From Candidatus Izemoplasmatales bacterium (GTDB taxonomy: Bacteria > Bacillota_I > Bacilli_A > Izemoplasmatales > Hujiaoplasmataceae): 64,000 nucleotides of DNA. Location of the stretch: contig JBFXGX010000005.1 of NCBI GenBank assembly GCA_050177605.1, positions 1-64,000 on the forward strand, written 5' to 3'. A program made the position numbers. Shown piece by piece: positions 21,601-24,600 of the stretch; within the stretch, counting starts at the first letter, position 1; every line of letters begins with the position of its first letter.

Positions 21601-24600
21601 AACTACCAGGTCCGATACCAATAATGACTTCGTCAATATCTCTTAGTTCTAGGTCAGCCTTTTTTAGTAATTGCTCGATAAAAGGCAAAATAGTAACAGA
21701 ATGATTTTGATGACCAAATTCATACACCGTATCCATTTCTTTATCATCAATTAATAAAGCTAGGTACATATATTCTGATGCGGTATCAATTACCAATCGT
21801 TTGAAGGATTTCTTCATAGATACCACTTCCTTTCAATAAAACTTCACGCGAACCATCTTCAAGTAATGAAATATGGATTTCTAAAAATTCTTTTGGCAAC
21901 ATCTCTAGAATAAAGGGGTACCATTCTATTACAGCAACACCTTTTCCATAGATAAAATCATCAAGTTCATAATCATAGCCTATTCCCTCAAGACGATAGA
22001 CATCCATATGATAAAGTGGTCGTTCGCCTGGATAGACTTTCAAAATCGTAAAAGTTGGTGAATTTACAGTTTCAGTAATTCCTAAATGACGCGCTAAAAA
22101 TTTAGTTAATGTTGTTTTTCCACTTCCTAAATCACCTTCAAGCCCAATAATAGACCCTGGAAAACAGAAAGGGATTAATTTCAGCGCGAATGCATTCATT
22201 TCTTCTAAAGAATGTATTAAATATTTCTTTTCCATCTTTTCACCTTAAAACTCTTTTAATGATGATTAAATTATATCATAAAGTAGCTACTTTATTGCTA
22301 GATTTTAGCCAAACTAATTAAAAAAATATCATCGATTAAGAAGTCATTATATCAAACCAACGAACCTATGTTATAATGTATTTAAGGAGTATAGTACGAT
22401 GAAAAAGTAATGAAGTGCTATAAAAGGATTTCATGTTATTAATTGTCCACAATCCGTTATCAAACAACAGAAAATCTAAAAAAACAACGAATCATTGGGT
22501 AAAATATTTCAAAAAACATCAAGTACCAATTACCGTTCGATCAACACTCAAAATCGATGATTTAAGTATCTATTTAGAAAAACACCCCAATATTAAAGAT
22601 GTATTATATTTAGGTGGCGATGGTTCAATTAACTATCTTGTGAACCAAGTAGATGTGTCTAAAATCAAACAAAATATATATTTAGCGAAAAGTGGCTCCG
22701 GTAATGATTTTTTACGAACATTAAAACAAATAAAAAAGGGAGATATCTCTATTGGTTTAGCGAAAACGAATGTTGGTGAAACACGCTTTATCAATGGTTG
22801 CGGTATTGGATTTGATGCGCTTGTTGGCCATTATGTCAATAACGACACCAAGAAATCAAAAATCTCTTACTTTAAAAATGTATTTAAAGCAGTGTATCGC
22901 TATCAAAAATCCCCTATTGATGTAAGTGTCGATGGAAAAGACTATCATTTTGAAAAAGCGTACTTTATTGCAATTCAAAATGGAAAGTATTTTGGCGGCG
23001 GAATGAAAATCACACCAAAGGGTAATCCCACAAAAGATTCTTTTCAAGTCTGTGTAGCCCACAATTTAAATACAACGATTTTATTAACTTTATTCCCAAC
23101 TATTTATTTTGGCGTTCATCCAAAATTCAAAAAATATATTACGGTTCTTGAAGGAAAAACAATTAAAGTGAAAGTACCGAGTCCAAGATACTTCCAAGCG
23201 GATGGAGAAGTCCTTGAAAATGTTGAAGAAATGATTATCACAAAAGATATGACGAAAGAATTTACAGCCTTCAACAAGTCAGATTATTTAAATCATTAAG
23301 AAAAAAACAACTCAGCCGAGTTGTTTTATTTTTTTTTATTGTAGTTTTGCTTCTAGTTTTGCTTTTAATTCTTCGTAACCAGGTTTTCCAAGTAATGCAA
23401 ACATATTTTTCTTGTATGCTTCCACGCCAGGCTGATTAAATGGGTTCACATCTAAAACATAACCACTGATTCCACATGCTAATTCAAAGAAATAGACAAG
23501 GTAACCAAAGGTATAAGCGTTTACGCTGTCAACATTGACAACAATATTTGGGACCCCACCTTCTTGATGAGCTAACAAAGTTCCTTGGAAAGCTTTTTTA
23601 TTGACATAATCCACAGATTTTCCTGCTAAATAGTTTAAACCATCAAGATCAGATGGAGCTTTTTCAATGAACATTTCTTTTTCAGGAGTCAAAACATTTA
23701 AGACTGTTTCAAACATAATACGTTCGCCTTCTTGAATATATTGTCCTAAAGAATGTAAATCCGTAGAAAATGATGCACTTGCGACAAATAATCCCTTATG
23801 ATCTTTTCCTTCAGATTCGCCAAATAATTGTTTCCACCATTCTGTAACATAATGGAACTTAGTTTCATAATCTACAAGCATTTCAACTGATTTTCCATTG
23901 CGATATAAAAGATTTCTCATCGCAACGTATTTTAAAACTTCATTTTCTTCAAGATTATTTTTCTTTGTATCTTTAAGACAGGCTTTTGCGCCTTTCATCA
24001 TCTCTTTGATGTTGATATTCATTGCGGCGATTGGAAGTAATCCAACTGCAGTAAGAACAGAGTATCTACCTCCTACATTATCTGGGACAACAAATGTTTC
24101 ATATCCTTCTTCTGTAGAAAGATTTCTTAAAGCACCTTTTTCTTTATCTGTTGTAACATAGATTCTTTCTTTTGCTTCAACTTTGCCGTATTTTGTTTCA
24201 AGTAAATCCTTGAAAACACGGAATGCGATTGCTGGTTCAGTCGTTGTTCCTGATTTCGAAATAACATTTACAGAAAAATCTTTGTCTTTTACATATTCAA
24301 CCAACTCATTTAAGTAAGTTGAAGACATATTATGTCCAGCAAAAATTACTTCTAATTTTTTCTTTTTTTCGAAATAGGGTGTTAATAAATCTATCGCTGC
24401 TTTCGCTCCAAGATAAGAACCACCAATTCCAATCACGATTAATACTTTTGATTGACGACGAATTTTCTTTGCAGAGTTTAAAATCCTTGCAAATTCTTCT
24501 TTATCATAATCATTCGGTAAGTTTACCCAGCCAAGGAAATCTGAGCCTTCGCCAGACTTGTCAGTTAATGTTTTTTTAGCTGCAAATACTTCTTTTTGAA

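Follow-up and report, generated by a model that had tools for sequence, protein, structure and literature searches.

The lineage-wide gap in nadK, the gene for canonical NAD kinase, is real in Izemoplasmatales, which are wall-less bacteria. The reading favoured here, with a probability of roughly 0.47, is that an unrecognised enzyme makes a small NADP pool in these bacteria and that metabolism has partly shifted to NADH. According to two papers (PMC6675116; PMC6283598), NADP is formed by NAD kinase alone, and most bacteria tested cannot do without this enzyme. If Izemoplasmatales and Acholeplasmataceae do make their own NADP with such an enzyme, at least 160 of the sampled species would follow a second bacterial route to NADP, and growing cells without any NADP, the alternative, would be equally striking; either way, the cells would have a novel enzyme for NADP formation or live without this cofactor. 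The gene that an earlier note had offered as a candidate NADP source, g505, lies in the window analysed here (the first 64,000 nucleotides of contig JBFXGX010000005.1 of a Candidatus Izemoplasmatales bacterium) and, by sequence and structure model, encodes a YegS/BmrU-type protein with the lipid-kinase fold, which is ordinary when taken alone.

Absence and loss of nadK

NAD_kinase_C exceeded its cut-off neither in this genome nor in the 70 other genomes of its family (f1) or the 77 of family f2, and did so in 2/10 genomes of family f3, in line with the counts given in the earlier note. No canonical nadK was found in the 148 genomes of f1 and f2, most genomes being incomplete bins searched with a pre-filter and kin being non-independent. 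The N-domain matches of NAD kinase in this genome fall on one DgkB-like gene and two PFK genes, as had also been stated before. A weak NAD_kinase_C match in G098 was discarded because it falls in a membrane-protein gene, as was a weak mixed-profile match in G275 that falls on a g505 orthologue. Weak matches to the mixed profile also occur in G002 and G266. In addition, nadK was found in none of the 12 sampled Acholeplasmataceae and is missing from several other reduced families.

A very divergent NAD kinase lying below detection in all genomes, or an assembly artefact, would account for the gap differently, and both the incomplete bins with their pre-filtered search and the existence of an NADK2-like family that has the NADK fold and escapes both Pfam models leave some room for it. 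However, an unfiltered six-frame search of the closed genome G028 with two profiles revealed no NAD kinase (best E 0.47), and the profile behind this value detects the NADK2-like gene at C17:7490 with an E of 3e-6. Moreover, the mixed profile returned, over the 158 genomes of the order, only three expected genomes and one 36-residue stretch, NAD_kinase_C is found in 0/62 high-quality genomes, and nadK is gone from its ancestral slot, all of which makes such an explanation barely credible.

The ancestral gene order is gap-nadK-CYTH-spx-pepF-trpS. In the closed genomes G007, G028 and G140, nadK is cleanly gone and spx abuts gap, while the gap–spx slot holds other genes in G141 and in this genome; among Acholeplasmatales loci spanning CYTH to gap, nadK is present in 3 of 15. 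Izemoplasmatales would have lost the gene from this slot by deletion, as would most Acholeplasmatales, probably in a separate event, a scheme in which absence and synteny are observed and the order of events is reconstructed. In f3, nadK adjoins NfnA/NfnB-like genes, and a database search for a named donor gave none, a 'Bacilli' label at most. As a separate observation, which tells against the favoured reading, this pairing looks as if NADP had arrived together with its user.

Identity and distribution of g505

The features of the window that bear on g505 are as follows.

tsaE: 21786..22235, minus strand; named from Pfam, opens a divergent tsaE-tsaB-rimI-tsaD run (to 19753)
g505: 22433..23299, plus strand; 288-aa ORF of a YegS/BmrU/DAGK-family kinase, a probable lipid kinase from sequence and model
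Putative bidirectional terminator: 23304..23327, no strand assigned; common to g505 and pgi, its sequence read directly and its function predicted
pgi: 23336..24670, minus strand; convergent, downstream of g505
PgpA-family phosphatidylglycerophosphatase: 25213..25710, minus strand; three genes away from g505
DgkB-like paralogue: 44699..45643, minus strand; second lipid-kinase-fold GGDG protein, among the three NAD kinase N-domain matches

The upstream neighbour tsaE is kept in f1, f2 and G148, and the convergent pgi in most of the loci read from them; the genes beside tsaE we take to be tsaB, rimI and tsaD from their motifs. The putative terminator is a perfect hairpin (10-bp stem, 4-base loop), with an A run on one side and a T run on the other, and since it is likely common to g505 and pgi, g505 would be transcribed alone. 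The PgpA-family gene stays close to g505 in many loci across Izemoplasmatales.

The protein passes both curated Pfam cut-offs (DAGK_cat, 43 bits against 23.6; YegS_C, 80.8 against 27) and falls short of all NCBIfam cut-offs for lipid kinases (the best score being that for TIGR00147, 96.8 against 118.65), as the earlier note had it, which places g505 in the wider Pfam family and outside the TIGR00147 subfamily. Its motif set comprises NPLS, GGDGS, GSGNDFLR, FINGCGIGFD, NGKYFGGG and QADGE; the patterns NPxS, GGDG, G[ST]GND, GGG and DG[ED] show little or no variation across 62 rows of the family and align to 4wrr and 2qv7, and ATP is predicted to be bound via NPxS, GGDG and GSGND. The structure model (pLDDT 93) retrieved SphK1, YegS, DgkB and the B. 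anthracis and E. faecalis kinases as its top 14 entries, with Z scores of 26.1 for SphK1 (3vzb; rmsd 2.7 over 272), 21.9 for YegS, 21.7 for 3t5p and 21.5 for DgkB, and the profile match to 3t5p/3s40/4wrr reached an E of 1e-34. Thus, g505 has the same domains, motifs and fold as the YegS/Rv2252/BmrU lipid kinases (DgkB 2qv7, YegS 2bon/2p1r, B. anthracis 3t5p/3s40/4wrr) and SphK1, and differs from that family in scoring below all NCBIfam cut-offs and in forming its own clade, separate from the DgkB-like paralogue (SH-aLRT 99; quick IQ-TREE or FastTree runs without bootstrap). It presumably also resembles YtlR of B. subtilis. Its substrate is most likely a membrane lipid, e.g., diacylglycerol, monoacylglycerol or a sphingoid base.

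Canonical NAD kinase (NadK/PpnK; PF01513 and PF20143) resembles g505 in its two-domain fold and in its GGDG catalytic motif, which is invariant in the g505 family (G61-G64). However, NAD kinases rank far lower than lipid kinases for the model (Z 12-15; profile E 0.16), neither PF01513 nor PF20143 matches g505 at E <= 1, and a nadK profile gives an E of 2.6. The NE/ND and Gly-rich C-terminal motifs play a role in substrate binding by NAD kinase; both, the latter of the [ST]P[ST]GS[TS]AY type, are present in 5/5 aligned nadK rows and in none of the g505 rows, where the invariant N121, which probably corresponds to the NE/ND position, is followed by Gly. The nadK-less clade shows no new conserved residues in g505, the motifs being alike with or without nadK, and conservation is median-level (58.7% against 58.9% for 792 best-reciprocal pairs with G028).

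The earlier note had called g505 core in exactly two families. Its wide presence there was upheld, with matches in 67/70 other f1 and 71/77 f2 genomes (exceptionally, the match is paralogue-level only in G107, partial in G143 and split by a stop in G142), and its exclusivity was not, as orthologues occur in 12/12 genomes of Acholeplasmataceae (f15), in one f3 genome, G148, and in at least 10 genomes that carry nadK (E <= 3e-34). Co-occurrence with nadK is seen in L149, L150 (= G183) and L187 and in f4, f5 and f13, and in three Acholeplasmatales loci a g505-family gene lies 5 kb from an intact nadK. Conversely, g505 was not found in several other nadK-less families, e.g., f22 (0/5), and is weakly represented in f9 (2/14); nor was it found in G107 (96% complete) or G056 (92% complete). 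A distribution complementary to that of nadK, expected of a replacement, was therefore not observed. The two nadK-bearing f3 genomes, formerly said to lack g505, do lack a syntenic orthologue, but so do 7 nadK-less genomes of the same genus, and both carry a member of the sister subclade, whose members adjoin YhhN-family lipid genes. The g505 family is older than the loss of nadK and vertically inherited.

That g505 is, or doubles as, an NAD kinase, a side activity on NAD of this GGDG-fold kinase having made nadK dispensable, would fit the shared fold and motif, its presence in nearly all f1 and f2 and all sampled f15 genomes, all nadK-less, and its place among just four GGDG-fold kinases in the closed G028; co-occurrence with nadK is also compatible with a back-up role. 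Nevertheless, the lipid kinases at the top of the structural ranking (Z 21-26), the missing NE/ND and Gly-rich TPxGSTAY motifs, the unremarkable conservation, the orthologues beside intact nadK, the nadK-less genomes in which it was not found and the lipid genes next to its sister subclade all count against it. A lipid-kinase-like, vertically inherited gene that stands beside intact nadK in relatives is a weak candidate, and such a role is very unlikely; the g505 family takes about a sixth of the probability of a second route through an enzyme unrelated to NAD kinase or unrecognisably far from it. The product of g505 is probably not the NADP source.

Cofactor use in nadK-less genomes

The earlier argument that NADP must come by another route gained support from intact transhydrogenases of predicted NADP type in nadK-less genomes. 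PntB is present in 29/158 genomes of the order, none of which has nadK, and gave no match in 129, this genome included. Its loops were read in 21 of the 29 (8 left out): 14, all from f2 and from 8 genera, have the KRS loop of domain III, are 60-94% identical among themselves and match KRSMNTGYAG of E. coli, whose PntB contacts NADP+ through Arg425 (PMC13635403). In 7/21, that of the closed G028 included, NYD replaces KRS, and NADP may not be bound. The set pntA1-pntA2-pntB is complete in 4/4 f2 loci read and in G028, whereas pntB of G105 is interrupted by stops; no neighbour of pntAB is common to the four loci compared, so that the genes beside it were set aside as candidates for NADP formation, and pnt adjoins nadA-nadB in G147. 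Because many genomes keep a transhydrogenase whose sole use is hydride transfer from NADH to NADP, an NADP(H) pool appears to be retained, and the loss of nadK where such an NADP-only machine persists means that there is probably another route to NADP.

Two further enzymes of the window are informative about cofactor choice.

Thioredoxin reductase (TrxB) of the ancestral locus: 6953..7909, minus strand; NADPH loop HEFDAFS instead of HRRxxxR
Short-chain dehydrogenase: 58455..59210, minus strand; basic ARR loop, orthologue retained in closed G028

The HEFDAFS loop suggests a shift away from NADPH, and the ARR loop is presumably NADP-type. All cofactor assignments are sequence-based, and the NADPH signatures reported earlier proved mixed: the 2'-phosphate arginine of Zwf, whose meaning, including its fit with dual specificity, follows PMC8546961, is kept in 31/31 and no acidic loop occurs in 15 FabG proteins, whereas ancestral TrxB mostly lacks the arginine (10/12 nadK-less against 1/5 nadK-bearing, read after PMC6262447) and DHFR has it in 6/20 nadK-less against 4/8 nadK-bearing rows. 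The GRS of FolD is found in 22/22 nadK-less and 6/9 nadK-bearing cases; FolD and DHFR residues were rejected as nadK markers, as they do not separate the two groups. Asd, AroE, a YqhD-like enzyme and Zwf would retain 2'-phosphate residues.

Cells free or nearly free of NADP, in which all remaining reductases use NADH, ferredoxin or flavodoxin and the residues of NADP type are relics or signs of dual specificity, would agree with the DHFR and TrxB counts, with Gnd of NAD type (Asp in 19/20) and with NYD-type PntB. Moreover, most NADPH-dependent enzymes are gone from G028 (Zwf, Gnd, FabG, Asd, ProAC and the two main TrxB), GpsA was not found in this genome or G028, nadK is likewise missing in other reduced families, and it comes back with NfnAB-like genes in f3. 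However, the KRS-type transhydrogenases, the invariant Zwf arginine, HRRxxLR TrxB in 4 f1 genomes and the FabG loops argue otherwise, and the DHFR arginine is also gone in 4/8 nadK-bearing rows; a life without NADP thus appears somewhat unlikely. In the favoured reading, nadK-less cells have most likely retained a small pool of NADP(H), and part of the redox work would have moved to NADH or ferredoxin, as suggested by NAD-type Gnd, TrxB without the arginine cluster and losses of Zwf, FabG or GpsA in some genomes.

Uptake of NADP(H), or of a precursor already bearing the 2'-phosphate, from partner organisms, lysed cells or a rich medium would account for NADP users lacking a maker; it has a precedent in host-dependent bacteria, proposed for Chlamydia (PMC12178909), and degradation of DNA and RNA is described for members of this order (PMC10470597). 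No transporter was identified, although no search aimed at one was made. De novo NAD synthesis was confirmed here, with nadA, B, C, D and E named from motifs, and is also complete in G028; together with pnt beside nadA-nadB, this argues against reliance on outside pyridine nucleotides, so that uptake is decidedly unlikely.

The host-dependent Chlamydia trachomatis, Mycoplasma hyopneumoniae, M. flocculare and M. hyorhinis also lack an NAD kinase homologue, with NADP-type enzymes assumed, and NADP-forming reactions were entered without a gene in a swine mycoplasma model (PMC4866288). In contrast to these, Izemoplasmatales have genomes of 1-2.4 Mb, de novo NAD synthesis is kept in the ones examined, some carry a transhydrogenase, and at least one member is described as free-living (PMC10470597). 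The old remark on a missing NADK therefore becomes a question testable in cultured, non-parasitic bacteria.

Possible sources of NADP

It is about an even bet that, in Izemoplasmatales and Acholeplasmataceae, the cells' own NAD is converted to NADP by an enzyme that either has no relation to NAD kinase or has diverged from it beyond recognition. The pool could stem from a kinase without homology to NAD kinase, from a side reaction of a phosphotransferase or from a further kinase of the GGDG fold. The best-reciprocal pairs with G028 were reduced to 342 soluble proteins of 140-470 aa, of which 150 were Pfam-scanned (E <= 1e-9), 10 crossing locus ends were listed and the others were judged from earlier labels or from the first residues; neither an NAD-kinase nor a zeta family, and no convincing candidate gene for NADP formation, was found among them. 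A second guanylate-kinase-like protein was rejected, since it is at orthologue level in G140, G081 and G294 but also in nadK-bearing G183 and G159, and was not found in G283, G266, G226, G158 and G167. A 190-aa P-loop kinase is present in just 1/5 genomes, and two further ORFs with a P-loop, as well as one resembling inositol monophosphatase, have no match in closed G028. For Acholeplasmataceae, 240 kb of the G290 genome were read.

Plant NADKc has a P-loop/zeta-toxin-like fold. In this genome, the sole zeta-like ORF (C4:21874) has no match in closed G028. NADKc, a calmodulin-dependent enzyme, shows that an NAD kinase can exist besides the three classical ones of plants (PMC12178909). Literature searches, with subscription journals and bioRxiv supplements outside their coverage, gave nothing relevant on Izemoplasma or Acholeplasma with NAD kinase, on YtlR/BmrU/DgkB, or on A. 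laidlawii with NADP and G6PDH or Izemoplasma with NADPH, and no paper on NrtR and SPFH with NAD kinase.

The claim that this genome itself lacks an NAD kinase has to be revised in view of one gene on another contig, missed by both Pfam models.

NADK2-like protein: C17:7490-8425; behind an NrtR and an SPFH gene, with profile, fold and motif match to human NADK2

Its best structural match is human mitochondrial NADK2 (7r4j-7r4m, 7n29; Z 27.4, rmsd 2.7 over 290 residues), all 50 entries listed in the structure search are NAD kinases or their entries, and the profile match has an E of 5e-13 at 21% identity. The motifs GQDG, VND and SSSGIIVSTGLGSTGW align to NADK2 and nadK, as do the catalytic Asp, N-D and SSG...TG.GST to NADK2. 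Fold and catalytic motifs are thus alike, whereas GQDG stands for GGDG (the second Gly being replaced by Gln), identity is low and the gene is linked to NrtR and SPFH genes. Matches to six NCBIfam models of NAD kinase reach 16-24 bits (cut-offs 211-371), and no Pfam model matches. The gene is found in this genome only (1/158 in the order), where g505 would be an inherited lipid kinase and this predicted, acquired NADK2-like protein is most likely the NADP source. The bacterial family to which it belongs has at least 7,999 members, annotated as 'sugar kinase' or 'NAD kinase', and no Pfam model; as a relative of mitochondrial NADK2 in bacteria that standard annotation overlooks, it is a lead of its own.

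Deletion of nadK from the lineage

The pathway hole left by the missing NAD kinase is genuine, and it is broader and better supported than the earlier note had it. NAD_kinase_C passes the cut-off in 2 of the 158 genomes of Izemoplasmatales, both from family f3, and has no match in the 62 high-quality genomes of the order (0/62), and the absence of canonical nadK claimed for families f1 and f2 holds for both. When the order was searched with a profile combining five nadK sequences and six NADK2-like ones, the matches were the source genome, the two f3 genomes just mentioned and, in G002, a single stretch of 36 residues. 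In the closed f1 genome G028 (1,356,138 bases, no N), the nadK profile had no match better than E 0.47 in a six-frame search without filters and the NADK2-like profile none at E <= 1, whereas that nadK profile finds a gene of the source genome (contig C17, position 7490) at 3e-6. Synteny agrees with this absence: the nadK-bearing G183 reads gap–nadK–CYTH–spx–pepF–trpS, while in the closed G007, G028 and G140 gap is directly abutted by spx, leaving the slot empty, and in the source genome and G141 the slot is occupied by transporter genes. A nadK hidden from the searches, or an artefact, is thus highly improbable given the empty unfiltered search and the closed slot; nadK has been deleted from this lineage. 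In a sample of the class, 93 of 160 scored genomes matched NAD kinase (one further genome was unscored), with 0/12 in f15, 0/7 in f19, 0/5 in f22, 2/14 in f9 and 4/11 in f10. The nearest named records to an f15 protein are from Acholeplasmataceae.

The sole canonical nadK genes of the order (G154 and G157; L004:64-2387, L005:2-2298) directly adjoin NfnA/NfnB-like genes, which suggests a transferred NADPH module.

The source genome probably does encode an NAD kinase, one of an unannotated type, and its supposed lack of one is probably wrong. The gene came up in a search with a profile built from three nadK proteins:

C17:7490-8425, NADK2-like kinase
C17:5535-8425 (L204:1536-4426), operon of NrtR, SPFH and NADK2-like kinase

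The kinase gene stands after those for SPFH and for NrtR, a regulator of NAD genes. A Pfam scan of its product gave no match, and NCBIfam gave weak matches to six NAD kinase models and no others. Human mitochondrial NADK2 is its best PDB match both in sequence and in fold (Z 27.4, rmsd 2.7 over 290), making it the structurally closest known protein and pointing to NAD kinase activity. The family comprises at least 7,999 proteins without a Pfam model, and its nearest named members belong to Acholeplasmataceae, Tenericutes and Firmicutes. The gene is present in 1 of the 158 genomes, its operon being private to the source genome there; it looks acquired and leaves the lineage-wide gap unsolved.

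g505 and the lipid kinases

The earlier note proposed g505, a kinase-fold gene, as a candidate replacement for NAD kinase.

22433-23299, + strand, g505, 288 aa (read from sequence)
23304-23327, 10-bp hairpin between the ends of g505 and pgi

g505 and tsaE are transcribed away from each other, g505 and pgi towards each other. Its product matches YegS_C (E 1e-22) and DAGK_cat (E 4e-11) in Pfam, both above cut-off; in NCBIfam it matches lipid-kinase models only, all under cut-off as had been stated, plus one unrelated weak match. In the PDB its sequence matches kinases of B. anthracis together with DgkB and YegS; a 62-row profile reaches these at 1e-34, NAD kinase appearing at E 0.16 only. The predicted structure (pLDDT 93) best fits sphingosine kinase 1 (Z 26.1, rmsd 2.7 over 272), followed by YegS, 3t5p and DgkB (Z 21-22), far above NAD kinases (Z <=15). 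ESM Atlas neighbours are DAGK_cat and YegS_C clusters without exception, and close homologues carry Izemoplasmatales database names. g505 has a lipid-kinase fold and is vertically inherited.

Its distribution gives the proposal some footing, since it is near-universal in f1 (67/70), f2 (71/77, one at paralogue level only) and f15 (12/12), and G028 has four GGDG-fold kinases, namely g505, PfkA and two DgkB-like proteins. It is therefore core in f1 and f2 as claimed, but not exclusively so, given f15 and orthologues in ten nadK-bearing genomes (E <= 3e-34). Among 80 named loci, 15 cover the stretch from CYTH to gap beside the tyrS–g505 orthologue–trpS block; intact nadK lies about 5 kb from the orthologue in three (L149, L150, which is G183's stretch, and L187) and is absent in 12. 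In quick trees these three orthologues nest among nadK-less Acholeplasmatales, in a clade (SH-aLRT 99) to which nadK-bearing f4, f5 and f13 also belong and which leaves DgkB-like paralogues outside. The conserved columns are an identical set whether nadK is present or not, and the NE/ND and Gly-rich motifs of the nadK rows were not found in g505. Identity between the source genome and G028 orthologues, 58.7%, equals the median of 792 pairs. Moreover, g505 was not found in nadK-less f22 (0/5 genomes), G107 (96% complete) or G056 (92% complete). Its reported absence from two NADK-bearing genomes, G154 and G157, stands for the syntenic orthologue, but their whole genus is without it and each holds a member of the g505 sister subclade. 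With this fold, orthologues beside nadK and missing motifs, the case for replacement is weak, and NAD-kinase activity of g505 is very unlikely.

Sister-subclade members adjoin YhhN-family genes in G149 and G150, and in f3 (L038:5546-9817, L039:4212-5682, L044:2410-6628) they cluster with genes for YhhN-family, flavin oxidoreductase and FAD/2Fe-2S reductase proteins, possibly an ether-lipid or lipid catabolic unit. In G142 (C61:3373-4232) a stop interrupts the g505 orthologue, as a pseudogene or sequence error.

NADP use in cells without nadK

PntB occurs in 29 of the 158 genomes (f1 7/70, f2 22/77), never together with nadK, and was not found in the source genome. Among the 21 of these whose domain III was examined, 14, all f2 genomes and spread over 8 genera, retain KRS[ML][SG]xG[YF]AG; their PntB are 60-94% identical to one another and share the KRS loop of E. 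coli (KRSMNTGYAG). This loop presumably grips the NADP 2'-phosphate, and no use of a PntAB-type transhydrogenase without NADP is known. The three-gene pnt set is complete in 4/4 loci read, and in G147 it faces nadA-nadB; intact KRS-type pntAB is therefore present in nadK-less genomes. In E. coli, Arg425 contacts NADP+ (PMC13635403). The other seven carry NYD in place of KRS (NYDL[KQ]PGY[AS]G):

G028 C1:969816-972755 (L403) and L445-L450, NYD-type PntAB variant, 7 nadK-less genomes

This variant may be one known from Clostridia. In G105 (C42:848-2239), pntB is broken by stops, as a pseudogene or sequence error.

The remaining signatures, read from residues, give a mixed picture of NADP use, and the claim that NADPH-type enzymes are kept stands only in part. 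FabG cofactor type follows an acidic or a basic loop; in favour of NADP, the acidic one occurs in 0/15, though the basic one is also missing in 5. Basic or GGGS loops, which likewise speak for NADP, are retained in Asd, AroE and a YqhD-like enzyme of the source genome. Zwf, found in 64/158 genomes, has the discriminating arginine in 31/31 aligned, a mark of NADP or dual use (PMC8546961), and a second TrxB in G000 (the source genome), G006, G007 and G015 has the HRRxxxR motif, an NADPH signature (PMC6262447, PMC10880999). On the other side, Gnd has an NAD-type Asp in 19/20, and the loop of the ancestral-locus TrxB lacks arginine in 10/12 nadK-less versus 1/5 nadK-bearing genomes:

6953-7909, ancestral-locus TrxB in hprK-lgt-trxB-whiA (relatives L303-L315, L319)

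Zwf, Gnd, FabG, Asd, ProAC and both main TrxB were not found in closed G028, nor was GpsA there or in the source genome; GpsA is found in G140, G283 and G183 and present in f2, f15 and f20 genomes. Glycerol 3-phosphate must therefore come from another source in G000 and G028, and the gap may add weight to lipid recycling kinases. Together with the NYD-type PntB (7/21) and the f3 nadK beside NfnA/NfnB-like genes, these features favour growth free of NADP, which is nevertheless unlikely in view of the 14 KRS-type pntAB and the Zwf arginine. NADP taken up from outside is less probable still. Import of NAD(P) is stated for Chlamydia, which lack NAD kinase (PMC12178909); models of three swine mycoplasmas without this enzyme were given its reactions without a gene (PMC4866288), and 24 gene-essentiality datasets class NAD kinase as essential (PMC6283598). 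The preferred reading, at a probability of roughly 0.47, is that an enzyme that has escaped recognition would supply these cells with a reduced NADP pool. No other candidate for the NADP route was found among part of the genes common to the source genome and G028, or beside pntAB. In a search with most subscription journals and supplements outside its scope, no paper was found on the NAD kinase gap in Izemoplasmatales or Acholeplasma, or on the NrtR–SPFH–kinase operon; NADP use may already be touched on in earlier Acholeplasma biochemistry.

De novo NAD genes are found in the source genome, as claimed, and in G028 (L355-L422), a closed 1.36-Mb genome with full de novo NAD synthesis and no recognisable FabG or canonical TrxB. 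In most of the Izemoplasmatales and Acholeplasmatales read, nadK-bearing G183 included, the arginine cluster is gone from the hprK-lgt-trxB-whiA TrxB. DHFR and FolD residues are uninformative on NADP use; many DHFRs (L209-L236) have Glu, Asp, Leu or Ser, regardless of nadK, at the position where the E. coli arginine presumably binds the 2'-phosphate, and those without it may possibly use NADH. A second guanylate-kinase-like protein (G000 C18:29103-29678; L359:14406-14966) is 67% identical between the source genome and G028 and patchy in related families, and a short zeta-toxin-like P-loop ORF (G000 C4:21874-22449) has no match in G028. The starts of folA and a glpO-like gene, doubled across N runs (G000 C3:22520-23214 and C6:76516-76743), are scaffolding artefacts.
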